Positions 6,045-57,611 of a DNA stretch of 64,000 bases are shown piece by piece. A program made the position numbers and the translations under genes. The stretch covers positions 132 through 64,131 of the forward strand of contig CAZFAM010000005.1 in assembly GCA_964516425.1 (NCBI GenBank). Direction: 5' to 3'. Within the stretch, counting starts at the first letter, position 1. Every line of letters starts with the position of its first letter. A model generated the notes under the pieces. The model saw nothing but the letters and a program-made list of their open reading frames with translations. It made no database searches and was not told the DNA's origin. Source of the DNA: an uncultured Bacteroidales bacterium (lineage in GTDB: Bacteria > Bacillota_I > Bacilli_A > ML615J-28 > CAG-698).

Positions 6045-6045
6045 T

Positions 6046-10073: not shown

Positions 10074-10097
10074 ATGTTCCACCTCATACATATATAT

Positions 10098-10126: not shown

Positions 10127-10214
10127 TATTTATGCAAAAAAATTGCACAAAATCTTTTTTTATATTATATGTTTTTTTAAAGTGAATTATTCATATAATT
10201 TTATTACTTTAAAT

Positions 10215-10248
10215 ATAAAAAAGACATTCTAATTTAACTAAGAATGCC
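10215..10248 (-). terminator. Intrinsic terminator after recX
   Basis: Minus strand stem GGCATTCT / AGAATGTC (one G-U pair) followed by T6. Confidence 0.7.
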
Positions 10249-10388
10249 CTTATTTGAAACAATATTATTATTTTTTCTTTTTTATTTCCTTTTCTATTTC
10301 TTGCTTTAATGATCTTTCTAAATCTTTCGAATTAATCATACGATCTTTATCATCCATTATATCACCCATATAATTTATATGATGATGA

Positions 10389-11186: not shown

Positions 11187-11192
11187 TCACAT

Positions 11193-12296: not shown

Positions 12297-12319
12297 ACTA
12301 ATTTCTCCTCAATATTAAA

Positions 12320-14824: not shown

Positions 14825-14927
14825 GCACGGTCACATCCTTTCAATATATATAATATATGATACACTATTTTATACTTTTTTGCAAGTAAAAATAATAGCT
14901 CTTTAATCATATATTAACAAAAATTCT

Positions 14928-14956
14928 TTGACTATTAAATTCATAAATGCTATAAT
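14928..14956 (+). promoter_or_regulatory. Near-consensus promoter with extended -10
   Basis: TTGACT, 17 nt, then TGcTATAAT. The TTG used as the ORF start in the track is the -35 box. Confidence 0.7.
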
Positions 14957-14972
14957 ATTCTTTGGTGACTTT

Positions 14973-16250: not shown

Positions 16251-16260
16251 AAGCATTATA

Positions 16261-16304
16261 AAAAAGCAACATTGATATAATTATCGATGTTGCTTTTTAT
16301 TTTT
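16261..16304. terminator. Bidirectional terminator between convergent genes
   Basis: 12-bp stem AGCAACATTGAT / ATCGATGTTGCT flanked by A5 and T5. Confidence 0.8.
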
Positions 16305-16400
16305 CATAAATATTATTATTTTGAACATAATTTATGCTTGATGATTTTATTTATAAAGTTTTATGGTCTTTGTTGTTTCATCTTTATTCCACTCATTTTT

Positions 16401-17543
16401 TTATTCATCATTTAATGACTTAGAAATAATAGGTAAATTTAATATTTCTAAAATTTCTTTTGCAGCAGTATCATAATCCTTATTATAAACTACATAATCA
16501 CATAAAAATATATTATTCTTTTCAGAATCAATAGCTAAGATCCGATTTGTTTTATCTTCTACATTAGAATTTTTCATTAATATATTTTCTATTAATGATT
16601 TTCTATCTCTCTTTATATAAATTGTCACAACATTATTAAAATGACATTTCAATGTCATAGCACCACAAATATCCATAGTTGTCAAAACATTTTTACCTGA
16701 ATTTATTATTTTTAATACATCATCTTTTTTCGATCCAAATCCATGCCCTGCATACATTGTTGATTCAAAAAGCATATTAGAATCTAACATTCTTCGAAAT
16801 TCCTCTTGTGAAACATAATTATACCAATCATTTTCCTGTAAGCTAGTTAAATCTTTTGTAGTATATGATTGAAGTTTAACAAGACTATTAGTATACTTCA
16901 TCAATTTACTAGCTACCTTAGTTTTTCCACTTCCAGATGGCCCTACTAAGCATATGATGTAAGGGTCATTACTTAAGACTGGATCCTCCAATGTTGAATT
17001 ACTTTTAATTATTACCTCTAACAATTTCAAAAATTCATCATAATTGTTTGCGGCAAGCATACCAGTAGCATCTTGATTCCAAGGCTTACGCATTAGTATT
17101 GGATATTTAGCATTTGATTTAAATACATTATGCATGCCATCATCAAATAAGACATCCACATTTATTTTATCTTTGCGACTTCCCATATAGATATTACCAA
17201 CCTCTATTTCTGGAAATTCATCCATTAATCTTTTAGCTCTTATCCCCATAAATTCTGGTGCAATCGATGTTGAGATAAAAACCTCAGCTATTTGTGTTAG
17301 TTTCTTTAAAAAATCTTTTGCACCTGCAATAACTGGTTGATCTTCATAAAACTTGGGATCATTAAAATATTCAAATATAACATCTGCTCGACTACCTAAA
17401 TGTCCCCATCTATCAACTTCATGTATAGAAATGGGAGGCTGAAAATTATATTTTTCATTAGCTAATTTGATAGCATATGGGATGCACTCAAATAAAACAT
17501 CATCTACGTCTAAAGCAACAGTCATTTTATAGTGTCTATTCAT
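16401..17543 (-). CDS. Fusion of an NT5C-type HAD 5'(3')-deoxyribonucleotidase and a guanylate-kinase-like P-loop domain
   Basis: N-terminal half: HAD motif I ALDVDDVLFE, then STS and LFDDGMHN. C-terminal half: LVGPSGSGKT and YTTK, colinear with guanylate kinase up to CDYVVYNKDYDTAAKEILEIL. The start is probably ATG 17543; the 46-codon K/C-rich extension in the track is unsupported. Confidence 0.65.
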   Translation of the reverse strand: MNRHYKMTVALDVDDVLFECIPYAIKLANEKYNFQPPISIHEVDRWGHLGSRADVIFEYFNDPKFYEDQPVIAGAKDFLKKLTQIAEVFISTSIAPEFMGIRAKRLMDEFPEIEVGNIYMGSRKDKINVDVLFDDGMHNVFKSNAKYPILMRKPWNQDATGMLAANNYDEFLKLLEVIIKSNSTLEDPVLSNDPYIICLVGPSGSGKTKVASKLMKYTNSLVKLQSYTTKDLTSLQENDWYNYVSQEEFRRMLDSNMLFESTMYAGHGFGSKKDDVLKIINSGKNVLTTMDICGAMTLKCHFNNVVTIYIKRDRKSLIENILMKNSNVEDKTNRILAIDSEKNNIFLCDYVVYNKDYDTAAKEILEILNLPIISKSLNDE

Positions 17544-44778: not shown

Positions 44779-45264
44779 ATGAATAATAAAATAAAAAACA
44801 TTACAAGATTATCTATTGTTTGTGCAATGTATGTTGTTTTAACAATCCTTAATCCTTTTTCTTATGACACGGTTCAATTTAGAATTTCAGAAATTTTAAT
44901 TTTTTTATGTTTTTTTAGAAAAGACTATTCTATAGCACTTATACTTGGCTGCTTTATATCTAACTTATTTAGTCCATTAATGATGTATGATATCATTTTT
45001 GGAACATTAGCAACAGCATTAGCTTGTATTTGTGTTATGTTTTCAAAAAAATTAATTATAAGTGCCATTTACCCAATTTTATTTAATGGCATTTTAGTAT
45101 CTTGGGAACTTTCTATAGCTTTCCAAACTTCATTTTGGTTTAATGCTTTTTGGGTAGTTTTAGGAGAAAGTGTTGTCATAATAATTGGTTTATTAATTTT
45201 TAGTAAACTAAAAAATAATCAAATGTTTTTAGAACTAATTGATGCTAAACAAAATAATCTTTAA
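44779..45264 (+). CDS. queT: Queuosine-precursor transporter QueT (ECF S-component type)
   Basis: 161 aa, 5-6 TM helices, with motifs VQFRISE and NGILVSWEL. ATG 44779 follows AAGGAGG; the track's GTG 44731 lies inside the riboswitch. Confidence 0.85.
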   Translation: MNNKIKNITRLSIVCAMYVVLTILNPFSYDTVQFRISEILIFLCFFRKDYSIALILGCFISNLFSPLMMYDIIFGTLATALACICVMFSKKLIISAIYPILFNGILVSWELSIAFQTSFWFNAFWVVLGESVVIIIGLLIFSKLKNNQMFLELIDAKQNNL

Positions 45265-45293
45265 AAGGTGCAAGAATATTCTTGCACCTTTTA
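45264..45293. terminator. Bidirectional intrinsic terminator
   Basis: Palindrome AAAAGGTGCAAGAATATTCTTGCACCTTTT between convergent queT and the ABC/FtsX gene. Confidence 0.85.
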
Positions 45294-45386
45294 AATTTAA
45301 CAATATTAATTATTTTAAATTACTTAGTTATTATTGGGTAAATAGTTTTAATAAACAATATCTATTACTACTATTTTTTATATAAA

Positions 45387-47735
45387 TTATTTTAATCGTA
45401 TAACATCAATTGGATTTCTACTAATTGCTTTATGTAAAGAAACATAACTTATTAAAAAATTAACTAAAACTATTACAAGTAGTATAATCATTGCATATTG
45501 ATACCTAAAAACTAATAAACTTATAGTTGATGAATATTTACCTACCAAAACATTATTGGTAGCATTTATAAAAACTATTCCAACAATTAAAGAAATTATA
45601 AATGACATGACAATAATAAAAATGCTTTGCAATAAATATACATTTAGTATTGACTGCTTTTTAATACCAATTGCTCGCAATATTCCATTTTCTTTCTCTT
45701 TTGATTTAACAATTTGCGAAATAATTATTGTATTAATCAAAACAATTAAAAGTATCATTAAAACAACAAATATATTACTAATAAATCTCGCAACTGACAA
45801 ATTGTCTTCGAACGAATTCAAGCGTTCGGTATAATAGTAATTTGCAAAATAGCCATATTTATTATAAATAAATTTTAAAAAAGCATATTGATCATCAACA
45901 GATGATGTTTTTATTAAAATTGAATTATTAATTGTAAAATCATCTATCCTTTTTTTAATTTCTTTTGATATGACTATCGAATCTTGTACTCCAACTATTA
46001 TACCTTTTATAACTAAATTATTTAGTTCTAGTTTTGCATTTAGCTCATTATTTTCTATAATTTGTAAATTAATAGTTTCATTAATGTGCACTGGGCTTCT
46101 TAAAAGATCACCATTAAAATATTGTTCTCCCAAATAATAAATAATATCCGATTTTTCATTAAAAATACTATTATATACATTTAATGAAAGATATATTTCA
46201 TTTTCCATTGGAACTATCTCTGATTGATTTATTATATGCTCTACATCATTAAAATAAGAACTATATAAGACACTATTTATTTCCAAAGTATTTAAACCAG
46301 TAATATTGCTAGTCATATAACCCTGTGATACCTTCAATGTAAACCAGCCATTTTCATTACCTATATTGAAATATGAGTGAGGATTTGTGTACAAACTATC
46401 TTTTGTATGAAAAACTATTTTTTCACTCTTATCTCTTTTTGCTTTATCATATGCTTCAGTATTCGGATTATCAATATCTAAATCATCATTGCCAAAAACA
46501 TAAGTATGATAAACTCCAGCAATATATACTATAGCAGTATTTTTAATATAATATTGGTCTATACTTCCAAAATTAAATTCCTGTTTAAGTACTTCTCTAT
46601 CAGTTAATTTATAATACAGTTTACCTTCTTCAGCAAAGTTATATAGATAATAATCCGGCAAAATTATACTTTCATTATCTATTTCTCGATAATTAGGATA
46701 TAGATCATATCCTATCTCTATTACCTCATCAATTGATTTAATAATCCCATTTCTAATGTATTTGAAATCATCATATTGAATAATATTATTCGCAGAACTA
46801 TCATATATCCATACATTTTCTTGATTTGAAGTAATCAAATATTTCTCTATATAATTATCTTCTATATTTTTAGCATCAATATATGGCCTTTCAAATCCAG
46901 ATATTACAAGTGATAATGATAAGATTGAAAAAGCTAAAATAATAGATACCAACGAAATCATAAATCTAATCTTTTTCTCAAAAATATTTTTTAATGATAA
47001 CTTCAGAATATTCTTTTTAGAAAAACAATATTCATTTGATAAAAATTTCTCATTTTTATGATTTATTTCATTAATTATAATATCATCTATAATCCCCCCA
47101 TCTTCAAGTTTTATTATTCTATCAGCATATTCATGTGCTAAGTCTTCGTTATGAGACACAACAATAATTAATTTATCAGAAGATATTGATTTTAAAATAT
47201 TACAAATATTTTTACTATTCTCTTTATTTAAATTTCCAGTTGGTTCGTCAGCTAATATTATGGACGAATTCCTTGATAATGCTCTTGCTATAGCAACCCT
47301 TTGAATTTCACCACCACTTAATTCATTAGGATAACGTTCCTCATATCCGTTTAAGTTAACCTTATGTAAAATTTCTTTTATTTTTTCTTTTCGTAATTTA
47401 TTATTCTTTTCACAACACACAATGCTTATATTTTCATACACAGTTAAATTAGGAAGTAAATTGAAATCTTGAAAAATAAAACTCATATACTGATTTCGAT
47501 ATTTTTCTAAAGAGGAATTATCTAAAAGTAATTTATCATTATTAATTGATATAGTACCAGAAGTCGGAGTATCTAATCCTCCAATCAAATTTAAAAGTGT
47601 TGATTTACCACTTCCACTAGTGCCTAATATAAATACCAAACCATTTGTTCCAAATGATATATTAATATTTATTAAAGCATTCACTGTATTTTTCTTAATT
47701 GTATAACTTTTATAAACATTATTAAGTATTAACAT
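45387..47735 (-). CDS. Fused MacB-type ABC transporter: N-terminal ATPase plus C-terminal FtsX-family permease with a large extracytoplasmic domain
   Basis: GTSGSGKSTLLNLIGG, LSGGEIQRVAIARAL and ILADEPTG. Then TM1, about 380 aa of extracytoplasmic sequence and three C-terminal TM helices (FtsX 4-TM topology). Confidence 0.85.
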   Translation of the reverse strand: MLILNNVYKSYTIKKNTVNALININISFGTNGLVFILGTSGSGKSTLLNLIGGLDTPTSGTISINNDKLLLDNSSLEKYRNQYMSFIFQDFNLLPNLTVYENISIVCCEKNNKLRKEKIKEILHKVNLNGYEERYPNELSGGEIQRVAIARALSRNSSIILADEPTGNLNKENSKNICNILKSISSDKLIIVVSHNEDLAHEYADRIIKLEDGGIIDDIIINEINHKNEKFLSNEYCFSKKNILKLSLKNIFEKKIRFMISLVSIILAFSILSLSLVISGFERPYIDAKNIEDNYIEKYLITSNQENVWIYDSSANNIIQYDDFKYIRNGIIKSIDEVIEIGYDLYPNYREIDNESIILPDYYLYNFAEEGKLYYKLTDREVLKQEFNFGSIDQYYIKNTAIVYIAGVYHTYVFGNDDLDIDNPNTEAYDKAKRDKSEKIVFHTKDSLYTNPHSYFNIGNENGWFTLKVSQGYMTSNITGLNTLEINSVLYSSYFNDVEHIINQSEIVPMENEIYLSLNVYNSIFNEKSDIIYYLGEQYFNGDLLRSPVHINETINLQIIENNELNAKLELNNLVIKGIIVGVQDSIVISKEIKKRIDDFTINNSILIKTSSVDDQYAFLKFIYNKYGYFANYYYTERLNSFEDNLSVARFISNIFVVLMILLIVLINTIIISQIVKSKEKENGILRAIGIKKQSILNVYLLQSIFIIVMSFIISLIVGIVFINATNNVLVGKYSSTISLLVFRYQYAMIILLVIVLVNFLISYVSLHKAISRNPIDVIRLK

Positions 47736-47752
47736 ATTTTAATTTTCCTTTT

Positions 47753-48349
47753 TTAATCATTTACTTTTACAATACTATACTTAGAATAATTATTTTTAAC
47801 AACAGAAATCATAAGATTAAATCCAGATAAATAAATTGTTTCATTCTCAGTATAAGATGTAATTATTAAATTATATATTGTATGTTCTTTTTTTTCATCA
47901 GTTAAACAATAATATATCCCATATGAATTAAATGAAACGCTATTTTCAGAATAACCATAAGAATCAATTTGATAATTTTCTATATTGCCTATATCTTTTG
48001 ACATATATATTTTTCTATTTTTTTCAAACATATCATCTAATTTTGCATATCCAAATTCTTTATAAATATTATTATTTTTAAATTCATTTAATACATCCAC
48101 AACAAATTTGATTACATCATCATCTTTTGAAACATTCATATAACAAAATAGCATTTTATTATTACTTTTATTATAATAATTTGTGGAATTATCGGGAGCC
48201 AATAAATTATCTAGCCCAAAATTTCTTAATTCTTTATTATTAAAAAAATCAGTTCTTTTAACACATGCTGTCATAGTAAATAATAAAAAAAATAACATTA
48301 ATATTAATATACTTTTTATAAAATTTCTTTTTTTATTCGCTATACCCAT
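47753..48349 (-). CDS. Small lipoprotein, function unknown
   Basis: Lipobox-like FTMTAC. ATG 48349 follows GAGGAAG and overlaps the last 17 nt of the giant gene. Confidence 0.55.
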   Translation of the reverse strand: MGIANKKRNFIKSILILMLFFLLFTMTACVKRTDFFNNKELRNFGLDNLLAPDNSTNYYNKSNNKMLFCYMNVSKDDDVIKFVVDVLNEFKNNNIYKEFGYAKLDDMFEKNRKIYMSKDIGNIENYQIDSYGYSENSVSFNSYGIYYCLTDEKKEHTIYNLIITSYTENETIYLSGFNLMISVVKNNYSKYSIVKVND

Positions 48350-51300
48350 ATTCTTCCTCTGATGCATATCTTCCTTGATTAGTTCTACCAATTCCTAAAA
48401 AGCCTCCAACTTTTATTAAGTTTTCATAATTACATGTGCCACTACATACACTTCCAGAAAGTGTAACAGTTGAATCTTTATATCCGATAATTTGTCCCAT
48501 ATAAGGTGCTAACTCTTTACTATCTGACTGTGAACTTGAAAACATAATTAACCCATAATTTTTGCAATTAGTAAATGTTGAAGACACTGTTGCCTTACCT
48601 ACTATTCCGCCAGTATACCCATTACATGATCCATCCCAATAATTATATAAATTAGCATTATTTATACAATTAGAAAAACTTCCGCTCATCGACGCTCCAG
48701 TTATCCCACCCATTGAACCATAACTATATATTTTCAATTTATTATTAGATTCACCAGCAGTACAATTGGTGAAATTCGAATTGTTACAAAAACCGACAAG
48801 TCCTCCAATATATGATTTAGAATTATTATAACTAGCACCCATAGTACCAGATTTAGCCACACAACCAATAAAATTAGAATTAGAAGCAAAGCCACAAATT
48901 GATCCTATACAAACACTTCCACTATTACTTCCTGAAAATACAGTAATATTTGAAATGTTTAAATTACTAAATGTAGCATTATCAACAGATTTAAATAATC
49001 CATAATCAATATTTGATGATATAATTTTCATAGATAGATTACTAATAGTCTTACTGTTTCCATTAAAATTTCTTTTAAAACAAGTTTCAATTGGTTGCCA
49101 ATCTTCAGAAATTATTATATTTTCAGTAAGTTTAAAATAACCATTGATATAATATGACTCATAATACGAATCAAACACAACAAATTCTCTAATATTATTT
49201 AATTCCCTAAAAGATGATATCAAATATGGTGATGATGAAGTTCCATTACCATTTTGAATGAAACCTTTTTTAGTAATAGTATTTGATGTATATGCAAAAA
49301 ATTCAGAATCTGAATCAATATAGTAAGTCTTACAATTAGAACCATTTTTAAAGGTAACACTATATATAGAAATTTCTAAATTTCCAACTTTATAATATGT
49401 TGAAGGAGGGACTAACTTAGCAGAGCTAAAACTTGTTGATGTAAAAGATTGAAGTTCACTATGGTTATTCTTATCTTTCATTATTAATGTAACTGTGATA
49501 CTTTCTCCTGAAATTGTTGTTGATGCACCAACATCAATTATAACTGAATAATCAAACTCATCTGATGTATTAATTAAATTTATATCAATATAAGGATTTA
49601 CAGATACATCAATTTTTTGGGTAGCAAACGCAATATCACCATCGAAAGCTTCTATACAAAAAGAAAGATAAGTTGATCCATCCCAGTTAAGATTCGCATT
49701 AGATTTTAAAGTAATATCATATGCATAGCCATCTTCCACGGCATTATACTCAAAATAATTTAGATAATTACTTTCAAATTTTAAACTTCCCTTTAATTGA
49801 TGGCCATTATGATAGTATGAAACTCGAATTTTATCATTTCCAGATCTATTCATATTTACTATTCTATCACTATTTATTATCCCATCAACTGTCCAATAAT
49901 AATTAGAAATTTCAGCTGAAATAGAAATAACTTGTGGATTCAATAATTTATTTTTAATTCCAATATATATTACTTCTCCTTCTATTAATGGAATAGAATA
50001 TAAGTTCCCGTGTTTCGCATTAACACTATCGATTCTTTGTACATAGCAGTATAAACTTGAATACATTTCTACGTTGGGATAAAAATTACTTACCTCAGTA
50101 GCAGTTAATTTAAATACAAATGTATTTGTAGAAGGTGCAACAAATTTAAAATAATTATAATTGTCGCCTATTGTTACTGATAAAGAACTATTGTATATTA
50201 TATCATCCAGCGATTCTGTTGTCAAATTAACACTTTGATTAGTTGATTTAGTATTTTTTATTTTTAAATAATATATTTGGTTTTCATTAAAACAATGTGC
50301 AACGGTTTCTGCACTATTAGTTATTTTTTGGTATGAATTATTTAAAACTTCAATTATTATATTATTATTATTTGTTTTATATTTTATTATTTTATTTGAA
50401 GTTTCTTGAACCATAATATAAGTAGTTTCATATGAAGATAAAGTATAATTTACATTAATAAAATCATCAACAAATGGAAAAACTATTGAAAAACTACCAT
50501 TATAGTTTGTCCCATTGTTATGTATATATATATTATAAGTTTTATCAGCATCTAAATTTACGAAATCATTTACATTATGCTCACTAATAAAATTCGAATC
50601 TGTATCTTGAAGCAAAATTATTAAATCATTATTTGAAAAATTTAATTTAAATTGTGAAGAAACAGGTGGAGTAAACGTATACTTTATAGCATTTATTCTA
50701 TTGGAAATTGTTTTAACTTCATTAATCAAGACATTCCCCATATTAGTTGCAATGCTACCATAAGTTAATTCTGACATTATAATTGATATAATTTCTGTAT
50801 CTCTAGCCTCTAAATTATGCGGGATTGGTACATTAACTTGACTAACTTTAGAATAATTCGTATTATCTGAAAAGAAAATTTTCTTTTTCTCTTTAAAACC
50901 ATTAAATCCCGATGCAATTTGTGATTCGTAATCAATAAATAAATCATCTTTAATTACCAATTTACCATAATCAAGATAACAATTATTAAAAATTGTTTGT
51001 ATCTGTTCTCTATCTTCTAATGTTGTATCATCCGAAAAAAAATTAACAATATCGATACCAAAATCAACAACCCTAAAGATTCCATTAACAACTTCCGGGT
51101 GCTCATTTATATATTGAGTAATTCCGTTAGCAGCCAAATTAACAATAAAGAATTTTACTTTTTCAAAAAATGAAGCATCACATGAATCAATTTCTAAAAG
51201 ATTGTATAATTCATCATTTACATAACCTCCCGCAAATAATTCTTCTAAATAATCTGATGAAGTACAACTACCAATAGCTACTGCATTAATATTCGCATTA

Positions 51301-52100
51301 GGATTATTTGATAACATAGTATTCCAATTATTTTTCAGTTCTACTTGTTTTTGTTTACTAGTTATATCTTGCCCACTATGACAATGTACTGCATAACATA
51401 ATCCAACAGCGTTTATTAATCTTGGAAGTTCCGAAAAAGCTGAACCATTATATGGAGTTCCCATACTAATTAAGTTAGCTACATTATATGGATGATTCGT
51501 TGCATAGATTAGATTAATTAATCCACCTCTGCTATGTCCAATCAAATTTATTTTAGGCAACTTTCCTGTATACAATTTATAATCATAAGATATTGAATCA
51601 ATCAATGAGTCTAGTTCTTTATAAACAACATCATGATATTCGTTATAATAGTATTGACCAAAAATAATTACTGCATGCTTACAAAAATCGCGAATTGTAT
51701 CTACAGGAATTTTTACATAATTATAATAATCTGTACCAGTTATTAAATCTCCCTTCTCACACAAATATAAATCGAAATCCTTAAATGTTGTAGTATCATT
51801 TGTATTTATTTTCATATCAGCAAGATAAACATCCGCATATGCATGAATTCTTAAAACTTCGATTAATGAATTATTATCATATACCAATTCACCATGATAA
51901 CTAGCAAATGCTGATTCATTACTTCCTTGCCCAGGAGTTAAAATTGTTATTGCTGGACTATCATTTATGTATCTATTCAATAATGTCTGACTGTGTAAAT
52001 CAAAGACACTTCCATTTGACGCAAAAACATTAGTACTAAAAATAATATTTCCTATTAGTATTATGATAAAGTAAAGAATTGTCTTAAATATTTTTTTCAT
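48333..52100 (-). CDS. Giant secreted protein: alpha/beta-hydrolase (lipase/esterase-like) domain, repeated beta-sandwich (PPC-like) modules, and C-terminal GLUG-motif repeats
   Basis: 1255 aa with signal peptide ending VFA-S. Nucleophile elbow LIGHSRGG followed by ISMGTPYNGS. The middle region has Y.F....F.L-type beta modules. The C-terminus has repeated IGGLVGF / MGGITGA / TGGIVGK units separated by N-C segments (GLUG-like). Confidence 0.75.
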   Translation of the reverse strand: MKKIFKTILYFIIILIGNIIFSTNVFASNGSVFDLHSQTLLNRYINDSPAITILTPGQGSNESAFASYHGELVYDNNSLIEVLRIHAYADVYLADMKINTNDTTTFKDFDLYLCEKGDLITGTDYYNYVKIPVDTIRDFCKHAVIIFGQYYYNEYHDVVYKELDSLIDSISYDYKLYTGKLPKINLIGHSRGGLINLIYATNHPYNVANLISMGTPYNGSAFSELPRLINAVGLCYAVHCHSGQDITSKQKQVELKNNWNTMLSNNPNANINAVAIGSCTSSDYLEELFAGGYVNDELYNLLEIDSCDASFFEKVKFFIVNLAANGITQYINEHPEVVNGIFRVVDFGIDIVNFFSDDTTLEDREQIQTIFNNCYLDYGKLVIKDDLFIDYESQIASGFNGFKEKKKIFFSDNTNYSKVSQVNVPIPHNLEARDTEIISIIMSELTYGSIATNMGNVLINEVKTISNRINAIKYTFTPPVSSQFKLNFSNNDLIILLQDTDSNFISEHNVNDFVNLDADKTYNIYIHNNGTNYNGSFSIVFPFVDDFINVNYTLSSYETTYIMVQETSNKIIKYKTNNNNIIIEVLNNSYQKITNSAETVAHCFNENQIYYLKIKNTKSTNQSVNLTTESLDDIIYNSSLSVTIGDNYNYFKFVAPSTNTFVFKLTATEVSNFYPNVEMYSSLYCYVQRIDSVNAKHGNLYSIPLIEGEVIYIGIKNKLLNPQVISISAEISNYYWTVDGIINSDRIVNMNRSGNDKIRVSYYHNGHQLKGSLKFESNYLNYFEYNAVEDGYAYDITLKSNANLNWDGSTYLSFCIEAFDGDIAFATQKIDVSVNPYIDINLINTSDEFDYSVIIDVGASTTISGESITVTLIMKDKNNHSELQSFTSTSFSSAKLVPPSTYYKVGNLEISIYSVTFKNGSNCKTYYIDSDSEFFAYTSNTITKKGFIQNGNGTSSSPYLISSFRELNNIREFVVFDSYYESYYINGYFKLTENIIISEDWQPIETCFKRNFNGNSKTISNLSMKIISSNIDYGLFKSVDNATFSNLNISNITVFSGSNSGSVCIGSICGFASNSNFIGCVAKSGTMGASYNNSKSYIGGLVGFCNNSNFTNCTAGESNNKLKIYSYGSMGGITGASMSGSFSNCINNANLYNYWDGSCNGYTGGIVGKATVSSTFTNCKNYGLIMFSSSQSDSKELAPYMGQIIGYKDSTVTLSGSVCSGTCNYENLIKVGGFLGIGRTNQGRYASEEEYGYSE

Positions 52101-52124
52101 TATTGCACTCCCATCATTTGATTA

Positions 52125-52379
52125 TTATCGTTCATTGTCTTTTAACTTCACGCCTAATAAGAAAATACCATCTGGATTATCATCATCTTCAACAACAATA
52201 ACATTGGTTGAAGCATCAATATTGTTATTATCAAAATCTTGATTTAGTCTGTCATCTTTAATACTATTTTCATCAATTACACTATTATCTTCGAATGCAC
52301 TTACCGACAATGAATTAATAGAAAAAATAAATCCAAACATTACAAAAACAATTAAAATTAAGTTAACAAATTTATTCAT
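52125..52379 (-). CDS. Small secreted acidic protein / candidate pro-peptide
   Basis: 84 aa with signal peptide ending SVSA-F. The mature part is D/N/E-rich with a hydrophobic patch DGIFLLGV near the C-terminus. AAAGGA RBS; 24 nt upstream of the giant gene. Confidence 0.55.
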   Translation of the reverse strand: MNKFVNLILIVFVMFGFIFSINSLSVSAFEDNSVIDENSIKDDRLNQDFDNNNIDASTNVIVVEDDDNPDGIFLLGVKLKDNER

Positions 52380-52550
52380 AATAAATTTTTCCTTTCATTA
52401 AATGATGTCAATATTTTACATTATTTTTTATGCAAAATCAAATTGCAACCATTTATAAAAATGAACGAAATATTAATTTTTTTTACAAAAAAATTAAAAA
52501 GCGTTTAATTAAATAAGCGCCTTTAATCAAATATATATATTTACTACAGT

Positions 52551-53672
52551 TTACAACTTTTTTAAAATTTTTAATAAAACATTTCCAATATTTTTATTTT
52601 CCAATTCTAATAATGCTCTTTTATCTTTGTTTATTAAATAACAATGTAAGTTTTCTAATACATTTTTATAACCATCATCTAATTCATTCAACGATAATTC
52701 TTCTTTATAATATATATTATACTCATCTTTATTCTTTTTAAATTTTGAAATTAATAATACACACATCTCAGTAATATTATATGATTTTTTGTTCTTTAAT
52801 AGTTTCAACACTTCATCATATTTTTTTAAACCTAATAATGAAAACATTAGATGTTTTAATGTTGCTTTGTATTCTACCCCGTTATTTCTTAAATTCATTA
52901 AAATCATTATTTGTTTTTGAGCTAATTCTCTACATTCATTATAATTCTCAATCATATTATAATTAGACATAATTGTTAAGTTTACATAAATTACTCTTAT
53001 GTAATTTTCTTCCTCAACGAATAATTGTTTTGCTTTTAAACAATAATATAAGCTGCCTGTATAATTTTCTAATAGCCAATATTTTGTCGCTATAATAAAA
53101 TAATGTAATCCTAAATTATAATTTTTAGAAGTTAGTTCGTCAGTTAATTCTGTTGTAAATGAAAGTCTAACTAAATCAGCAACATCTTCAAAAACAACTC
53201 CATAAAAAGGAAGAAACGAAATAGTTTCTAAATATAGATCATTATATTTTGAAATTGTGTCTTTAGGTGAATTATTTGCATTAGCTAACAAAAACAATTT
53301 AAATAAATTTAATATAGGATAAAGAATCAAGTTTTTACTTAATAGTAATTCTATATGTTCAATATAAATATTGTAATTATCATAAATTTTATAATACATA
53401 TCATAGTAAACATTATTTAAAAACAATTCCAATTCATCAATTTCTTCATTATCAACAGTTTGTAAATTAAATGTTTTAGAAAGTTTTTGTATAATACTAA
53501 CACCAATTTTTTGCTCACTTTTACTTGCACGTCTATATGAACTAGGAGTAATATTTTTACTATCTAAAAAAGCATCCTTATTATATGAGTTCTTTTTCAT
53601 TATAATATCAAATAATTTAAAATAAATAGTAGTAAATTTATAAACAGATAGATCAAATTTTTTGTAAAACAT
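52551..53672 (-). CDS. Cytoplasmic regulator candidate: degenerate N-terminal HTH plus long helical (TPR-like) domain, RNPP/AimR-like in size and layout
   Basis: 373 aa with an AAGGTG RBS. The N-terminal stretch DAFLDSKNITPSSYRRASKSEQKIGVSIIQKLSKTFNL resembles an XRE-type HTH. The rest is all-helical by composition. The family is not verified. Confidence 0.45.
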   Translation of the reverse strand: MFYKKFDLSVYKFTTIYFKLFDIIMKKNSYNKDAFLDSKNITPSSYRRASKSEQKIGVSIIQKLSKTFNLQTVDNEEIDELELFLNNVYYDMYYKIYDNYNIYIEHIELLLSKNLILYPILNLFKLFLLANANNSPKDTISKYNDLYLETISFLPFYGVVFEDVADLVRLSFTTELTDELTSKNYNLGLHYFIIATKYWLLENYTGSLYYCLKAKQLFVEEENYIRVIYVNLTIMSNYNMIENYNECRELAQKQIMILMNLRNNGVEYKATLKHLMFSLLGLKKYDEVLKLLKNKKSYNITEMCVLLISKFKKNKDEYNIYYKEELSLNELDDGYKNVLENLHCYLINKDKRALLELENKNIGNVLLKILKKL

Positions 53673-53921
53673 AATTACACCTTTTTACATTTTATTTTAA
53701 TATTATTTATTATATTTTATCATAAAATTAATTAAAGTACAATTTTATAGATAGTATAAAAATTTAATAGTTTTATTATTAAATTTACAACCAAATTAAA
53801 TCAAGTTCACAAAATATTTTAAAAATTTATTTATCACAAGAAATTTTAACGGAACAAAAATACATAATTTTCATATTTAAAGGCCAATATCTCTTGACAT
53901 TGACCTTTCCCCACATTTCTA

Positions 53922-54422
53922 TTAACAATATGAAACATAATAATAATTCCCATCATTATCTTGAACCTTTAATGAAGTAATACCATTTACTTCTTCAAAA
54001 AGAGAACTAATTTTAATACCTGTTCCTATTTTTTTTAAATACGCTTCTTTTCTTGTCCATTGTTTATAGAATTCTTCATCATTTTCAATGTTAAATCTAT
54101 TTTTCAATTGTGTAATATCTTTATTAGGATTAAGATATTCAATATCAATTCCACATTCTTCATTAGAAATAATAATAGCAATCATATTATGGGAATGAGA
54201 AATATTAAAATAAATATCCTTAATATAGGGCTTTTGATACTCATTATATGACAATTCAAAATTTTTAATTTGATATTCATTTTTTAGTATTGAATATAAT
54301 GTACTCCAAACAGCATAACTTTGTAATTCTATTTTTCCTTGACATTTTGCAATTTTATCCGAAAAAACACCATCGGGAATTTGAGCATGACAATCTCTAA
54401 TATCTTTAATATAAATTTTCAT
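53922..54422 (-). CDS. 4'-phosphopantetheinyl transferase, short Sfp-type
   Basis: FNISHSHN, GIDIE and WTRKEAYLKKIGTGI motifs. 166 aa; starts 3 nt after the anti-sigma stop. Confidence 0.8.
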   Translation of the reverse strand: MKIYIKDIRDCHAQIPDGVFSDKIAKCQGKIELQSYAVWSTLYSILKNEYQIKNFELSYNEYQKPYIKDIYFNISHSHNMIAIIISNEECGIDIEYLNPNKDITQLKNRFNIENDEEFYKQWTRKEAYLKKIGTGIKISSLFEEVNGITSLKVQDNDGNYYYVSYC

Positions 54423-54425
54423 ATT

Positions 54426-55769
54426 CTATTCCTTATTTAATAAATAATTCTTTGTGATCTTTAAATTATTAATTGCATTATCAAGATTTGTTTGATACGT
54501 ATTTTTAAAATCATCAATTGTATTTTTATTAAACTCTTGTAATTTACTATTGTCATACAAATCATTAATAGTAACTTGTTTAATAGGTAATTCAGCTTTA
54601 ATTTCTGTTAATGTTTCTAACACTTCTTCCATTGTGCGTTTTAAATCACTATATATGTTTTCTGCTATTTCTTCAATTGTGCTAAAAGCATATAAACAAG
54701 TTTTATAATTACCTTCCATTATATCTAATTTTGCTTTTTCAACTAAATAATCTAACATTGAATCACTATTACGAGCCTTATTTGTAATTTTCTTTTGCTT
54801 TAAATATTCTTGTTTTTTAAGTTCTAACTCTACCAAAGCTTTTTGATAATCAGAATCTTCATCTATAAATACTTTTTGATATTGTTCAATTAATTTTTGA
54901 TAAGCAGTTAAATATAAATCATAAAATTTATTATATTTGTCAATTAACAATTGATATGTACTATCTAATTCCTTAAGTAATTGATTAATATAATCATTTA
55001 TAACTATATTTGTTTGTTCATTTTTAAATGTTAAAAAGAGTTGTTCAAGTTTTTCACTAGCGATATCTTTTGTTTCTTTATGATAATTAGAAATCATTAA
55101 TACTAAATCATTGTAATTAACATTTGTTACATCACATTCAGGATAGTACGTATTAACTAATTGTTTTAATTCATCAATTGTTTTACCTGAATAATAAGTT
55201 ACTGATATTTTGTAATCATTATTGTTTTTCTTAATTTCATTAAGACTATTATTAATATAATCATTAAGGGTCTGTTTATGTTCTTCATCTTCAGAAGTAA
55301 TTGTTATTTTAGCATCATTTTGCTCTTCATCTAAATATCCCATTTCATATTCTAAAGTGAAAATAGTTTTTAAAACTTCATCTAATGATTTATTTTCAAA
55401 ATCTTCATTTAGAATAATCATTTTTCCTTCATCATTAAGTCCCTTTAATGATATAACTTGTTTATTATTATTAACTACTATTTCAATACTTGGATTAACA
55501 TCAATTTGAACAATGGAATTACTTTGAGGAGTTTCCAAGTATGGTGATGGAGATAATAAATTTACCAATACAATAACACAGATTAATAAAAGACAAGCAA
55601 ATGATGAGAAAATAGTAATCTTTTTATAGGATAACTTTTTAAAGAAAACTGTTTTTTTATTTTCAATACCAAATGTTTCATTAAAACGATGTTTTAAATT
55701 TATATCTGGTTCAGAGTCATTAAAATTATTTTGCAAACTTTTCTTTAATTTCTTTTCAAAATCACTCAT
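54426..55769 (-). CDS. Single-pass membrane protein, putative anti-sigma factor with a large ectodomain
   Basis: ATGA overlap with the sigma gene. It has a 50-aa cytoplasmic N-terminus, one TM helix (FSSFACLLLICVIVLVNLL), a juxtamembrane motif VQIDVNPSIEIVVNNNKQVISLKGLNDEGK, and then a helical region. No ZAS motif. Confidence 0.55.
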   Translation of the reverse strand: MSDFEKKLKKSLQNNFNDSEPDINLKHRFNETFGIENKKTVFFKKLSYKKITIFSSFACLLLICVIVLVNLLSPSPYLETPQSNSIVQIDVNPSIEIVVNNNKQVISLKGLNDEGKMIILNEDFENKSLDEVLKTIFTLEYEMGYLDEEQNDAKITITSEDEEHKQTLNDYINNSLNEIKKNNNDYKISVTYYSGKTIDELKQLVNTYYPECDVTNVNYNDLVLMISNYHKETKDIASEKLEQLFLTFKNEQTNIVINDYINQLLKELDSTYQLLIDKYNKFYDLYLTAYQKLIEQYQKVFIDEDSDYQKALVELELKKQEYLKQKKITNKARNSDSMLDYLVEKAKLDIMEGNYKTCLYAFSTIEEIAENIYSDLKRTMEEVLETLTEIKAELPIKQVTINDLYDNSKLQEFNKNTIDDFKNTYQTNLDNAINNLKITKNYLLNKE

Positions 55770-56266
55770 CTTTTCACCTCCTGTTTTAATTTTTCAATTC
55801 CATCATAGTATAATCCTTGAATTTGTCCTAAGGTTTTATTTAATAACTTGGCCATTTCTTTAAAACTATAATTATATATAAATCGTAAGATCATAATATT
55901 TTTTGTTTCTTCATCTAAAAATCGTTCAAATAAATCAATCATTTCATTATGATTATTATCATTAGCTTTGGCATAACCAACACTGGTATCATCTAAAACT
56001 TCATTTTCCTTTTTATTTCTTGTCACATGATTACAAGATTCATTTCTTGCTATCATACTAATCCATTCTTTTAATTTTCCATTATCTTCATACTTATCAA
56101 TATTTTTAATAACTTTATTAAATACCTCTATAGTTATATCTTCAGCATCTTGTTTATTCCGACTATAGGCATATGCAATATGATATACTAATTTAACATA
56201 ATCATTATATAATTTTTGTAAAGCTTCTTCATCTCTTTTTTTGAGTTTTGTTAAAAAATCATCCAT
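55766..56266 (-). CDS. ECF-type sigma-70 family RNA polymerase sigma factor
   Basis: 166 aa. Region 2 (DAEDITIEVFNKVIKNIDKY...WISMIARNE) and region 4 (ILRFIYNYSFKEMAKLLNKTLGQIQ). Confidence 0.85.
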   Translation of the reverse strand: MDDFLTKLKKRDEEALQKLYNDYVKLVYHIAYAYSRNKQDAEDITIEVFNKVIKNIDKYEDNGKLKEWISMIARNESCNHVTRNKKENEVLDDTSVGYAKANDNNHNEMIDLFERFLDEETKNIMILRFIYNYSFKEMAKLLNKTLGQIQGLYYDGIEKLKQEVKR

Positions 56267-56348
56267 TGTTTACCCTTTCATTTTTACTTTTTCTTTTTAC
56301 TATTATATCATAATTTAAAGAAAAGCTAAATAGACAAGTTATTAAATA

Positions 56349-56378
56349 AAGCCATATTTATGAATCTAAATATGGCTT
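56349..56378 (-). terminator. Hairpin terminator between the lipoprotein gene and the sigma operon
   Basis: Perfect 12-bp stem AAGCCATATTTA / TAAATATGGCTT with T/A-rich flanks. Confidence 0.65.
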
Positions 56379-56384
56379 CTTTTT

Positions 56385-57611
56385 TTATGCTTCTTTATTA
56401 TTTAAAATAGAATCTTTTAAAGCTTCTTTTTGTGCTTTTAATTGTGCTTCCATTTTTTGAATGTCTTCTTTATGAGCATCTTCAAATTTTGTAAAGAATT
56501 CATCTTTAGCTTTATTCATCGCTGTTTCAATTTCTGTTGCTTTTTCAGTTAATGTAGCTTCTAAATTAAATTGTTTTAATGTTTCTTCAATCGCTTCAAA
56601 TTTTTCTTCAGCACTTTTCATACCTTCAATTACAGTATCAAAACTCTTAACTAAATCATCACCTAATTTTACAAATGCAGCTTCTAATTTATTATATTGT
56701 TCTTCTAAATCTTTTAATTTTAATTCCGCATTAATTTTAACATCACCAACTTCAAGTGAAGCTACAAATGATCTTTGTTCCACAAACTTAACTTTAGCAG
56801 CTCTTAATTCAACCAATGCTTTTTGATAAGCTGAATCAGGAGAAATTAATGTATTATATTTTGTATCTTCTACTTTTTGAATAGCTGTCTTGTATAATTG
56901 CAATGCTTGCTCATAACCAGTCACAACCAATGTATATGCACTACCTAAGCCTTTAATAACGTCGGCTGTTGCTTGTTTTTCCGCAAATGCAATTTCATAT
57001 TCTTTTGCTTCGTAATATAATTTTTTCATTTCTTCAGAAACTAATTCTGCTGTTTCTAATCTACTAACTTTTAATGCTTGTAATAATTGTTCTTCAGTCA
57101 TTGCTTCAACTTCTTCTTCAGTGAATGTTGAATTATTTAAAACTAATAATTTTAATTCCGCAATTGCTAATGCTTTACCTTCAGTTACAACAGCAGTAAT
57201 ACCACTTTTATCTAATGCTTCTTGTGCAGATTGTTTTACTTCAGATGCTAATTTTTTTGCATACTCACTATCACCAGAAACAGAAATAGTTACTTCATTT
57301 TTAGAAACACTAGCTTCCCCTTTAACAATGTATCCTGTTTCAGTACATAAATTAATAATTAATTGTGTTGCTTCATCAACATCTTTACCCACAATTGCTT
57401 CTCCCGCAATTATAATACTACCATCATCATTTAAAGCAGAGCAAGAAATAACTTTTTTATCTTCATCAACCATTAATTCGATGCTTGGATTAACATCGAC
57501 AGTTACTCTTGATAATTCACCTTTTTCTTTTTCTTCATTACATCCTACTAGCACAAATGCACACATCACTACCATTATTAAACATAAAATACTTTTAAAA
57601 ACTTTTTTCAT
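56385..57611 (-). CDS. Lipoprotein paralogous to the anti-sigma ectodomain
   Basis: Lipobox LVGCNE. VTVDVNPSIELMVDEDKKVISCSALNDDGS and DSAYQKALVELRAAK are colinear with the motifs of ORF 54426-55769. Ala/Glu/Lys-rich helical C-terminal region. AAGGAG RBS. Confidence 0.75.
   Translation of the reverse strand: MKKVFKSILCLIMVVMCAFVLVGCNEEKEKGELSRVTVDVNPSIELMVDEDKKVISCSALNDDGSIIIAGEAIVGKDVDEATQLIINLCTETGYIVKGEASVSKNEVTISVSGDSEYAKKLASEVKQSAQEALDKSGITAVVTEGKALAIAELKLLVLNNSTFTEEEVEAMTEEQLLQALKVSRLETAELVSEEMKKLYYEAKEYEIAFAEKQATADVIKGLGSAYTLVVTGYEQALQLYKTAIQKVEDTKYNTLISPDSAYQKALVELRAAKVKFVEQRSFVASLEVGDVKINAELKLKDLEEQYNKLEAAFVKLGDDLVKSFDTVIEGMKSAEEKFEAIEETLKQFNLEATLTEKATEIETAMNKAKDEFFTKFEDAHKEDIQKMEAQLKAQKEALKDSILNNKEA

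Follow-up and report, generated by a model that had tools for sequence, protein, structure and literature searches.

The 64,000-nucleotide stretch of DNA analysed here (the window), from an uncultured low-GC gut bacterium, contains five co-directional minus-strand genes that an earlier note had put forward as a candidate undescribed module, plausibly a peptide-regulated surface hydrolase/adhesin activated by a transporter. The question is whether these genes form one unit and what role such a unit may have.

Extent of the cassette

The five ORFs encode, in the direction of reading, a regulator, a propeptide, a giant secreted protein, a lipoprotein and an ABC/FtsX transporter. Reading of the sequence gave a gap of 171 nt between the regulator and propeptide genes, 24 nt between the propeptide and giant genes and 17 nt between the lipoprotein and transporter genes. 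A hairpin terminator with a 16-bp stem (45260-45295, no strand assigned) separates the transporter gene from the QueT gene, which converges on it, and is common to both; the terminator scan returned three terminator-like sites against 1.0 expected. The ORF list and the sequence reading place the genes, spacings and closing terminator where the earlier note had them.

The boundaries of the block are evident from the DNA comparison of two contigs. Positions 8344-16683 of locus L005 are 85% identical to window positions 45385-53746, and the flanks are unrelated. Homology ends upstream at position 53746 and downstream at position 45385, at the stop codon of the transporter gene, so that the terminator lies outside the mobile block. 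The upstream edge is formed by the conserved promoter/leader of the regulator gene (53673-53746, minus strand), in which the block TTTAATTTTATGATAAAATATAATAAAT is identical in the window and L005. The 8,377-bp block is a discrete accessory cassette and, as had been proposed, a real unit. The cassette and its relatives often lie within mobile elements or next to them (serine recombinases, TnpV, Rep_trans, PcfJ/PcfK, ArdA). The richness in Asn, Ile and Tyr that had been taken to fit accessory or fast-evolving DNA does separate the module proteins (25-32%) from SecA, EF-G, LeuRS and BipA (13-18%), but many other ORFs of the window reach 25-33% and GC3 is uniform across the window ORFs (0.08-0.19). 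Composition is therefore no sign of a foreign block.

The five genes do not travel as one set. All five families together were seen in the window and L005 only, relatives of the regulator-propeptide pair also front other exoprotein genes, and the lipoprotein has only two homologues; the part of the gene combination that does recur across genomes is the giant gene with the transporter gene. The cassette is thus two joined modules, a switch and an effector, and not a fixed five-gene system.

The regulator and the propeptide

The regulator gene (52551-53672, minus strand) encodes a 373-aa putative receptor that combines a helical, HTH-like N-terminus with a TPR-like superhelix. The protein has no match in Pfam or NCBIfam and no PDB sequence match. 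Its AlphaFold model (pLDDT 92) is all-helical, and the best Foldseek matches in the PDB are the Rap proteins (phi3T, phi105, RapH/F/I, pLS20) and NprR, with modest E values of 3e-3 to 1e-1 and a TM score of about 0.5. With a 70-sequence profile, TPR proteins (Hop TPR2A, E 0.0017) were matched weakly, as was the transcriptional regulator PezA at positions 26-73 (E 0.09); no TPR HMM is significant, and the TPR assignment derives from the predicted fold alone. The family comprises 286 representatives at 50% clustering, mostly of about 370 aa, and residue N223 is invariant in it. On the basis of the model, the regulator looks like a cytoplasmic receptor of a family absent from Pfam. After its gene, a terminator-like hairpin with a T-run can be read at 52495-52526 (minus strand); the stem is imperfect in the window, and at the same position in L005 it is perfect over 10 bp (AAAAAGCGTT/AACGCTTTTT) and again precedes a T-run.

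The propeptide gene (52125-52379, minus strand) is preceded by a promoter-like region (52395-52448, minus strand; TTGATT, 17 nt, TGnTAAAAT). The promoter scan gave matches here at 52441-52413 and 52448-52420, and the 24-nt block CATAAAAAATAATGTAAAATATTG before the gene is identical in the window and L005. The encoded 84-aa Sec-type propeptide shows n-, h- and c-regions ending in SVSA, followed by FE, and carries a conserved acidic core, VVEDDDNPDGIFLLG, with the motif DDNPDG. Among the loci fetched by that stage of the analysis and the window, the pattern [D..]N[PD][DE]G was found in four small signal-peptide ORFs (window, L005, L088 and L023), each directly 3′ of a regulator homologue. The relative in L023 contains four tandem copies of the motif; such pheromone repeats are known from RRNPPA propeptides (PMC11343458). 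No oligopeptide permease or processing protease for the propeptide was identified. The regulator and propeptide look like an RRNPP-type quorum-sensing pair, as judged from the predicted fold, and the peptide regulation suggested earlier is plausible given the fold near Rap/NprR and the confinement of the motif to ORFs directly downstream of regulator homologues. Relatives of the pair also front other secreted-protein genes (L023, L088, L090); in L088 the switch is followed by genes for a 265-aa secreted protein and a related ABC/FtsX protein.

The giant protein, the lipoprotein and the transporter

The giant gene (48333-52100, minus strand) encodes a 1255-aa Sec-secreted protein whose signal peptide ends in NVFA, followed by SNG. 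A lipase-like alpha/beta hydrolase domain (about residues 1-450) is followed by a beta-rich middle (about 450-900) and a GLUG beta-helix (about 930-1230); the sequence shows neither an LPXTG motif nor a TM segment at the C-terminus. The Abhydrolase_1 match is weak (27.0 bits against a cut-off of 25.8). The nucleophile elbow GHSRGG matches those of the family I lipases 1qge, 1tah and 1cvl, the alignment to solved lipases being confined to the elbow region. Across 20 homologues there is no variation at H189-S190-R191-G192-G193, D385/D386/D390 or H428. The GLUG repeats of the window protein alone remain below the Pfam threshold (E 0.01, 16.7 bits against 20.5); the family profile, through its positions 919-1189, matches the GLUG-type structure 3n6z at E 4.9e-14, and PF07581 is present in several homologues. 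The invariant Ser-Asp-His residues, the lipase elbow and the 3n6z match bear out the earlier description of the protein as a secreted hydrolase with GLUG repeats. No peptidoglycan-hydrolase family of Pfam was matched. Full-length homologues (30-80% identity) come from metagenomes and MAGs only, and the N-terminal hydrolase domain heads many secreted proteins of 1000-2000 aa in MAGs of the Acholeplasmatales, Anaeroplasmataceae and Christensenellales.

The lipoprotein ORF is listed from a TTG start (47753-48391, minus strand). An ATG at position 48349, preceded by AGAGGAAG, gives a product of about 198 aa (47753-48349) and a 17-nt overlap of its start with the end of the giant gene. The lipobox in the window, FTMTAC, is atypical. 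The close homologue, in L005, shares 73% identity, and its corresponding N-terminal region contains the canonical lipobox LTSC; the other homologue, in L001, is weak (E 2e-5) and is encoded upstream of the giant gene. No match was found in Pfam, NCBIfam, PADLOC or PHROGs, and the lipoprotein is lineage-specific. Some lipoprotein gene adjoins the giant-transporter pair in about 10 of the 13 transporter-linked loci (12 counted plus L034), the neighbouring lipoproteins being mostly not homologous to that of the window.

The transporter gene (45387-47735, minus strand) encodes a 782-aa fused NBD-FtsX protein of the MacB type (type VII), with Pfam matches to ABC_tran (residues 23-166) and FtsX (654-775). 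Walker A, the Q-loop, the signature, Walker B (D163-E164) and H195 are invariant in 30 homologues. The model (pLDDT 86) matches full-length MacB (5gko, 5lil, 5nik) at the top of the Foldseek results, with E values of 5e-31 to 8e-25 over about 800 columns, which supports the MacB-type assignment made earlier. The large outer domain that had been described is present between TM1 (helix 255-279) and TM2 (helix from 636), at about 355 aa in the secondary structure of the model and not the roughly 380 aa given before. Pfam MacB_PCD does not detect this ectodomain; its modelled beta-alpha-beta elements beside the stalk helices appear to resemble a Porter subdomain. The best NCBIfam match of the NBD is TIGR03608, the lactococcin-972-type bacteriocin ABC family (182.6 against a cut-off of 254.85), and FtsE is among the other matches.

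The minimal recurrent unit is the giant gene with the transporter gene, as in L008 and L003, a pairing for which no description was found. A transporter of the family, aligned including its ectodomain, adjoins the giant gene in L001-L012, L028 and L092; L001-L012 amount to ten separate places, L004 and L012 being second samples of the loci L003 and L006. The transporter gene lies downstream of the giant gene, upstream of it (L003, L008, L011) or on both sides (L028). Among informative loci, it accompanies 12 of the 17 giants with the middle region and none of the 63 without it (Fisher p = 1e-10), counts that are inflated by shared ancestry because every homologue derives from a limited range of gut MAGs. 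The adjacency is kept down to about 27-32% protein identity in MAGs of Bacilli and Clostridia and survives order inversions, one duplication and one exchange of the hydrolase domain. In L092 the N-terminal domain of the giant is unrelated and lacks GxSxG, and the middle, GLUG and transporter are retained. No family transporter was found within 10 kb of five of the 17 same-architecture giants (L013, L017, L022, L025, L031), and no giant within 10 kb of two of the three transporters sampled from the transporter side (L091, L093). It follows that the pairing is facultative, unless the missing partner is encoded elsewhere in the genome.

Proposed mechanism and comparison with known systems

We propose, tentatively and at somewhat under an even chance, that the cassette as a whole joins an RRNPP-type switch to a giant/MacB-type effector. 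After Sec export and extracellular processing, the propeptide would re-enter the cell and be sensed there by the regulator. The regulator, as a protein of the HTH-plus-TPR kind, would control the promoter before the propeptide gene, which probably drives the propeptide, giant, lipoprotein and transporter genes as one transcript; since the transcript would include the propeptide gene, the switch would be self-reinforcing. We infer this logic and the co-transcription from gene spacing, from promoter conservation and by analogy with RRNPP systems. The giant protein would be exported by Sec with cleavage of its signal peptide, its Ser190-Asp-His428 domain would act as a lipase/esterase-like enzyme, and the GLUG beta-helix probably binds a surface. 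The transporter would not be a channel for the giant protein; ATP hydrolysis would move its large ectodomain at the outer face of the membrane, as in type VII proteins. The Aat system is reportedly a type VII ABC protein acting on a protein at this face. For LolCDE and FtsEX such action is established (PMC5985334). The most likely target is the giant protein, which would be contacted through its conserved middle and C-terminal parts. We infer that the transporter would release it, hand it over or position it at the surface of the cell, and that the neighbouring lipoprotein may serve as a membrane-tethered partner.

Self-protection is a rather unlikely alternative. The giant protein or amphiphilic products of its lipase would harm the membrane of the producer, and the transporter would clear the outer leaflet, as YknXYZ, BceAB and HrtAB do; the lipoprotein might be an immunity protein or inhibitor, and the giant protein an antagonistic exoprotein directed against competitors. 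Gram-positive MacB-type transporters are best known for detoxification and protection from own toxins (PMC5985334). The orphan transporters of L091 and L093 are what immunity genes would show, the overlap of the lipoprotein gene with the giant gene is frequent in effector-immunity pairs, the L088 layout is bacteriocin-like, and the mobile surroundings and the TIGR03608 match point the same way. However, that match is below the cut-off and covers the NBD only. The 63 hydrolase-bearing giants of other architectures lack such a transporter, as do five of the 17 giants of the same architecture, and L092 retains the transporter despite its replaced hydrolase domain. A transporter conferring immunity against the enzymatic domain would be expected to follow that domain, and this one does not.

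It is improbable that the locus is a loose neighbourhood, with a generic exporter hitch-hiking with a surface-protein gene on mobile DNA, a regulator that is a mere TPR protein and a propeptide that is an unrelated small secreted protein. The occurrence of giants and transporters on their own and the counts inflated by shared ancestry would fit this reading, but the linkage follows one giant architecture and persists through sequence divergence, inversions and duplication, and the propeptide motif was found only beside regulator homologues, whatever the downstream cargo. Still more doubtful is the model of the earlier note, in which ATP-driven ectodomain motion switches on catalysis by the giant protein at the cell surface in the manner of FtsEX with PcsB: the shared type VII superfamily, the FtsE match and the conserved adjacency to a hydrolase-bearing protein speak for it, but the transporter is fused and not split into E and X subunits, its ectodomain is far larger than the small Porter-only domain of FtsX (PMC5985334), the enzyme domain is lipase-like with no peptidoglycan-hydrolase match, the transporter is kept without the hydrolase domain in L092, and its family also occurs with no giant within 10 kb (L091, L093).

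In the proposed two-module cassette, the switch resembles the RRNPP(A) systems (Rap-Phr, NprR-NprX, PlcR-PapR, PrgX, Rgg, AimR) in its all-helical 373-aa regulator with a fold closest to Rap/NprR, in the 84-aa Sec-type propeptide encoded directly beside it, in the tandem repeats of L023, which recall Phr propeptides (PMC11343458), and in the adjoining exoprotein genes, which are presumed to be regulated as in the PlcR and NprR regulons. It differs in that the regulator has no significant sequence match to known subfamilies or to TPR/HTH HMMs, its receptor family has no Pfam model, the acidic DDNPDG core is distinct from known pheromones and the host MAGs are those of uncultured gut Bacilli and Clostridia.

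The transporter shares with MacB and other type VII proteins (MacAB-TolC, LolCDE, the Aat system, YknXYZ, HrtAB) the N-terminal NBD fused to four TM helices, the large extracytoplasmic domain between TM1 and TM2, the match of the whole model to MacB structures and the intact ATPase motifs. In contrast to MacB systems, there is no MacA/HlyD-type adaptor gene and no outer membrane, the ectodomain of about 355 aa exceeds that of MacB (about 200), and the conserved neighbour is a 1250-aa secreted protein and not a small-molecule or peptide substrate. The lactococcin 972-type system likewise has a Sec-secreted protein gene beside an FtsX-type ABC gene and provides the best NBD match, TIGR03608; in the cassette this score is under the cut-off, a small bacteriocin like Lcn972 is absent, the ABC protein is fused and its partner is about 20 times larger. 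FtsEX with PcsB, CwlO, EnvC or RipC is similar in that a type VII ABC protein is encoded with, or works with, an extracytoplasmic hydrolase, and in the expected mode, mechanotransmission and not transport. The cassette differs from it in the fused transporter with its much larger ectodomain, in the lipase-like, GLUG-bearing partner in place of a peptidoglycan hydrolase, in a transporter-giant link that outlasts loss of the hydrolase domain (L092), and in being accessory and mobile rather than a division gene pair.

The giant protein has the GHSxGG nucleophile elbow and the Ser-Asp-His order in common with family I lipases and with the surface giants of other MAGs. The giants of Acholeplasmatales, Anaeroplasmataceae and Christensenellales carry the same hydrolase domain at their N-terminus, joined to LRR_5 and Flg_new repeats. 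The body of the window clade, in contrast, consists of the beta-rich middle and GLUG, and this is the sole clade linked to the transporter.

The five-gene cassette and its surroundings

Five co-directional genes occupy the minus strand of the window at 45387-53672, and their open reading frames match exactly the coordinates assigned to them in the earlier note. In reading order they encode the regulator REG (373 aa), the propeptide PEP (84 aa), the large protein GIANT (1255 aa), the lipoprotein LIPO and ABC, a fused ATPase-FtsX transporter of 782 aa. The spacings described before were reproduced: 171 nt separate REG from PEP, 24 nt PEP from GIANT, and 17 nt LIPO from ABC. The overlap of 17 nt between GIANT and LIPO also holds, given that the LIPO gene starts at the ATG at 48349, a candidate start codon with AGAGGAAG directly 5′ of it. 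The proposed terminator was found as a 16-bp hairpin at 45260-45295, between the ABC gene and the convergent QueT gene. The cassette consists of two linked modules with identified domains, the REG–PEP switch and the effector.

The window was compared by blastn with L005, a contig that encodes a GIANT homologue of 80% identity. The two sequences form a single uninterrupted alignment of 8,377 bp with 85% identity, in which positions 45385-53746 of the window correspond to positions 8344-16683 of L005. The edges of this block lie approximately 75 nt 5′ of the REG start codon and at the ABC stop codon. The window and L005 have nothing in common outside the block, beyond which L005 encodes DUF6291, TnpV and a serine recombinase. 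No direct or inverted repeats of at least 11 nt were detected at the cassette edges in the window, except for one chance 11-mer. Some distant relatives are located by mobile-type genes, encoding Rep_trans, a UvrD-type helicase and a serine recombinase in locus L001 and PcfJ, PcfK and ArdA in locus L007. Other relatives are found in plain chromosomal settings, as in locus L008, which adjoins rpsD. A scan of the viral contig collection for GIANT and for REG revealed no relatives of either protein.

The flanks of the cassette contain ordinary chromosomal genes, encoding SecA, LeuRS, EF-G, BipA, an ABC-F protein, YjeF and PFK, and the G+C content is approximately 26% throughout the genome. The proteins of the cassette do contain more Asn, Ile and Tyr than core housekeeping proteins, as the earlier note had pointed out, however this enrichment is not specific to the module. 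Since equal values of 25-33% occur in a dozen further ORFs of the window and GC3 is uniform, composition does not mark the module and was ruled out as a sign of foreign DNA. The Rfam scan of the window gave no match, and searches of the five cassette products with PADLOC and PHROGs returned a generic ABC ATPase match, one weak PHROG of unknown function, and nothing else.

Several other gene groups were observed in the window. The stretch immediately upstream of the cassette (53922-57611, minus strand) encodes an ECF sigma factor, two anti-sigma-like proteins of the RsgI_M type (447 and 408 aa) and an Sfp/AcpT-like 4′-phosphopantetheinyl transferase. The ORFs of the window that were compared with Pfam include neither a carrier-protein gene nor an NRPS/PKS gene that would explain this transferase. 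Three paralogues of the glycosyl hydrolase-like family GHL10 are arranged in tandem at 30-8115 (minus strand), the largest of which (877 aa) has three Flg_new repeats. At 8344-10091, on the same strand, the start of a gene encoding a 391-aa AAA_21 (AbiEii-like) ATPase directly adjoins the stop codon at the end of a 190-aa ORF; these two genes may constitute a small defence or toxin-antitoxin-like pair.

The REG–PEP pair as a candidate peptide switch

The sequence of REG has no match in Pfam, NCBIfam or the PDB, and the search of the PDB with a 13-sequence profile was likewise empty. The model built from 13 homologues (pLDDT 92) is wholly helical. The solved structures that match it best are the Rap proteins (phi3T, phi105, RapH, RapF, RapI and pLS20) and NprR, ranked ahead of generic TPR proteins with modest scores (E 3e-3 and above, TM approximately 0.5), while the Foldseek search against viral structures returned generic TPR proteins only. 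A profile search of 1.84 billion representatives identified 286 relatives at 50% clustering; the full-length members are mostly about 370 aa long (about 360-390). Residue N223 is invariant in 70 relatives. In the phi3T Rap, the Asn that anchors the pheromone is Asn226 (PMC11343458). The profile of these 70 sequences gives a weak TPR match in the PDB (Hop TPR2A, E 0.0017) and a weak N-terminal match to the transcriptional regulator PezA. Pfam detects HTH_3 or TPR in single members of the family only (TPR_8/TPR_2 in 1 of 70, E approximately 0.006-0.008), and no TPR HMM match was obtained for the window REG itself.

PEP contains the conserved core VVEDDDNPDGIFLLG and a signal which, read by eye, shows typical n-, h- and c-regions and a cleavage site between SVSA and FE. 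The motif [DEGL][DEN][DN][PDE][DE]G[IVTYLF] was searched in all small signal-peptide ORFs of the loci fetched by then and of the window. It was found four times, in the window, L005, L088 and L023, each time directly downstream of a REG homologue; a looser version in L090 was recognized by eye only. The secreted propeptide of 160 aa that adjoins the REG homologue in L023 (8415-8897) contains four tandem copies of VIIRDDDNDEGTLICSIG. Tandem pheromone repeats are documented in RRNPPA propeptides (PMC11343458).

Five criteria have been formulated for RRNPP quorum-sensing pairs: a propeptide of 10-100 aa, its export through Sec, a receptor of 250-500 aa, peptide-binding TPRs, and direct neighbourhood of the two genes (PMC10075063). 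In the program RRNPP_detector the TPR criterion is an HMM E-value below 1e-5. PEP with 84 aa and REG with 373 aa are within the size ranges, and their genes are adjacent on the same strand, separated by the 171-nt gap. The same adjacency is seen in L005, L023 and L088, and L090 is similar by eye. The TPR feature is seen in the predicted fold only, as a TPR-like superhelix. Because the sizes and the adjacency agree, the Sec signal is evident by eye and TPRs are suggested by the predicted fold, REG–PEP is read as an RRNPP-like pair, which would work like the known pairs and lie outside the catalogued subfamilies. The receptor family has no description in the searched literature, Pfam, NCBIfam, PADLOC or PHROGs. 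If the assignment is right, the DDNPDG-type propeptides and the REG family, with its 286 representatives and no Pfam model, would extend the catalogue of gut peptide signalling, and detectors demanding a TPR HMM match would probably miss this family.

The genes downstream of the pair differ between the loci. The window and L005 contain the giant cassette, and L023 contains a Flg_new lipoprotein gene and a gene for a 1948-aa hydrolase giant without a transporter. The L088 locus (10001-14871), in which REG is 41% identical and the 87-aa propeptide contains GDDNPDGT, encodes a 265-aa secreted protein and a related 700-aa fused ABC/FtsX protein; this layout resembles that of a bacteriocin gene and its transporter. 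The L090 locus (636-5578) comprises the REG homologue, a 138-aa secreted ORF, an 820-aa secreted protein with the zinc-protease motif HEYGH and a 204-aa lipoprotein. Since the cargo varies from locus to locus, the switch is apparently a portable front end for exoprotein genes. A promoter-like block 5′ of PEP differs very little between the window and L005, and between REG and this block there is a terminator-like hairpin.

GIANT, the transporter and their linkage

GIANT has a cleavable-looking signal peptide, and its sequence lacks both an LPXTG motif and a C-terminal TM segment. Residues H189-S190-R191-G192-G193, D385/D386/D390 and H428 in the N-terminal hydrolase part are invariant in 20 homologues. 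The GHS190RGG elbow and the order Ser-Asp-His are those expected of a putative lipase or alpha/beta hydrolase, and the elbow can be aligned with those of 1qge, 1tah and 1cvl, which are family I lipases. The middle of the protein, about 450 residues, has no match to anything known. The C-terminal 270 positions of the family profile match 3n6z, a GLUG-type "putative IgA1 protease" (E 4.9e-14). On the window GIANT, Pfam Glug (PF07581) stays below the cut-off (E 0.01, 16.7 bits versus 20.5), and several homologues do carry PF07581. No CHAP, NlpC/P60, LytM or amidase matches were found in GIANT, the only signals being of the alpha/beta-hydrolase and GLUG types. The full-length relatives share 30-80% identity, are 1240-1300 aa long and all originate from metagenomes or MAGs. 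Remoter matches cover the N-terminal hydrolase only, fused to LRR_5 and Flg_new repeats, and these hydrolase-only proteins come from Anaeroplasmataceae, Acholeplasmatales, Christensenellales and other gut MAGs.

The GIANT gene also contains a perfect sigma-70 consensus at 50197-50225 on the minus strand (TTGACA, 17 nt, TATAAT, with an upstream TG), preceded at a distance of approximately 70 nt by a short hairpin rich in G+C (50297-50314). The consensus may have arisen by chance in AT-rich DNA, or it may be a promoter within the operon that serves its 3′ half.

The assignment of ABC as a fused MacB-type transporter stands. It has an N-terminal nucleotide-binding domain (ABC_tran, E 1.3e-31), an FtsX domain at 654-775 and four FtsX-type TM helices, and the top seven Foldseek matches of its model among solved structures are full-length MacB chains (E 5e-31 to 8e-25). 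The Walker A, Q-loop, signature, Walker B and H-loop motifs of the ATPase are intact, and G38, S40, G41, G43, K44, Q89, S140-G142, Q145, R146, D163-E164 and H195 are invariant in 30 homologues. In the model (pLDDT 86), helices span 255-279, 636-678, 693-731 and 745-771, and a mixed alpha/beta domain spans 294-635. The outer domain between TM1 and TM2 is thus large, as claimed, with a length of approximately 355 aa instead of the roughly 380 aa given earlier. The elements modelled after TM1 (beta298-alpha312-beta326) and before TM2 (beta586-alpha591-beta606-alpha616-beta630) would fit the order of a Porter subdomain. Pfam MacB_PCD does not match the ectodomain, and no Pfam match to an HlyD/MFP adaptor was found among the five cassette products or their neighbours. 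Full-length relatives of ABC form approximately 45 clusters at 90% identity. Among the metagenome matches listed for the ectodomain and TMD alignment, which are otherwise generic FtsX C-terminal matches, there are five distant fused ABC/FtsX genes of 900-950 aa (L094-L097 and L100), none adjoining a giant gene. Judged from N-terminal sequences only, their neighbours look DltA-type (AMP-binding) and DltB/MBOAT-type, which places these members of the wider transporter family in another genomic setting.

The linkage was surveyed from the giant side by six neighbourhood look-ups and a genome scan of 80 loci. A transporter whose homology extends from end to end and covers the ectodomain as well adjoins the giant in L001-L012, L028 and L092; L004 and L012 re-sample the L003 and L006 loci, which leaves 12 distinct places. 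Two more pairs (P0002 with P0129 and P0003 with P0130) are implied by contigs of the same size. Most loci have the transporter gene downstream of the giant; L003, L008 and L011 have it upstream, and L028 has one on either side. When the giants were sorted by the share of the family HMM covered, the transporter was present at 12 of the 17 informative loci with middle-region giants versus none of the 63 with hydrolase-only giants (Fisher p = 1e-10, with counts that ignore shared ancestry). In L092 (6066-12439) the giant has an unrelated N-terminal domain of approximately 500 aa without GxSxG, retains the middle and the GLUG part, and is followed immediately by the family transporter. Five giants of the same architecture have no transporter within 10 kb, and of three transporters whose own neighbourhoods were inspected, two (L091 and L093) have no giant beside them. 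A lipoprotein gene adjoins the pair in approximately 10 of 13 transporter-linked loci, L034 counted. These lipoproteins are not homologous to LIPO, apart from that of L005 and a weak match in L001, and at least three are Flg_new-type.

Two of these loci have particular arrangements. In L028 (7284-16179) a 1268-aa giant is located between two fused ABC/FtsX paralogues (811 and 838 aa). In L010 (10094-16063) the giant is a 1157-aa frame with no ATG before 10652 and may be frameshifted or misassembled; the 810-aa transporter of this locus has an ABC-like N-terminus, yet its nucleotide-binding domain is unmatched by BLASTP at 1e-4.

Role of the transporter and comparison with known systems

All readings derive from the analysis of sequences and from predicted structures, in hosts that are uncultured. 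We propose that REG would sense a peptide derived from PEP and drive a single PEP–GIANT–LIPO–ABC transcript. GIANT would leave the cell through Sec, and the MacB-type ABC would act on it or with it. A precedent is provided by type VII ABC transporters, whose site of action is the outer side of the membrane (PMC5985334). We favour a role of ABC in releasing, positioning or otherwise handling GIANT, possibly via LIPO, because the linkage follows the middle and GLUG body of the giant and survives replacement of the enzyme domain. The strongest rival, ranked second, is that the transporter serves self-protection. It remains strong because some transporters are orphans, some relatives lie in mobile-element contexts, and the L088 layout is of the kind described. 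FtsEX-style activation of the hydrolase, the model of the earlier note, ranks third because the testable features of that system are not found: FtsEX consists of separate FtsE and FtsX with a small FtsX ectodomain, and its partners EnvC, PcsB, CwlO and RipC are peptidoglycan hydrolases or activators with a coiled-coil docking domain, whereas ABC is one fused chain with an ectodomain of approximately 355 aa and GIANT has no peptidoglycan-hydrolase match.

A tentative generalization, which we consider possible and rather improbable, is that in some gut Bacillota a MacB-type "mechanotransmitter" whose ectodomain is enlarged is dedicated to releasing, positioning or switching a giant surface protein after Sec export. 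It would act via the conserved middle and GLUG body of that protein, in most cases along with a small lipoprotein, and would correspond, in single-membrane cells, to Lol, Aat or FtsEX. In this lineage it would be placed under an uncatalogued RRNPP-type receptor family. The pairing, if true, would offer a route to study the display or release of very large exoproteins without a sortase or TM anchor in wall-poor or uncultured gut Bacillota.

The lactococcin-972-type ABC family (TIGR03608) was rejected as a candidate, with 182.6 bits versus a cut-off of 254.85, a match to the nucleotide-binding domain only and no small bacteriocin match in the cassette. MacAB-TolC possesses a MacA/HlyD-type adaptor and an outer-membrane duct, whereas the cassette has no adaptor gene and the hosts of its relatives are labelled as Bacilli and Clostridia MAGs. 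The earlier view that the combination is undescribed agrees with the absence of the giant–transporter pairing from the searched literature, Pfam, NCBIfam, PADLOC and PHROGs. Each component is of a known kind: an RRNPP-like switch, a lipase-like exoprotein and a type VII ABC transporter. The transporters of this type that are known from single-membrane bacteria are mainly FtsEX or serve detoxification, and a conserved pairing with a giant protein, if true, would represent a new kind of client for the type VII superfamily.
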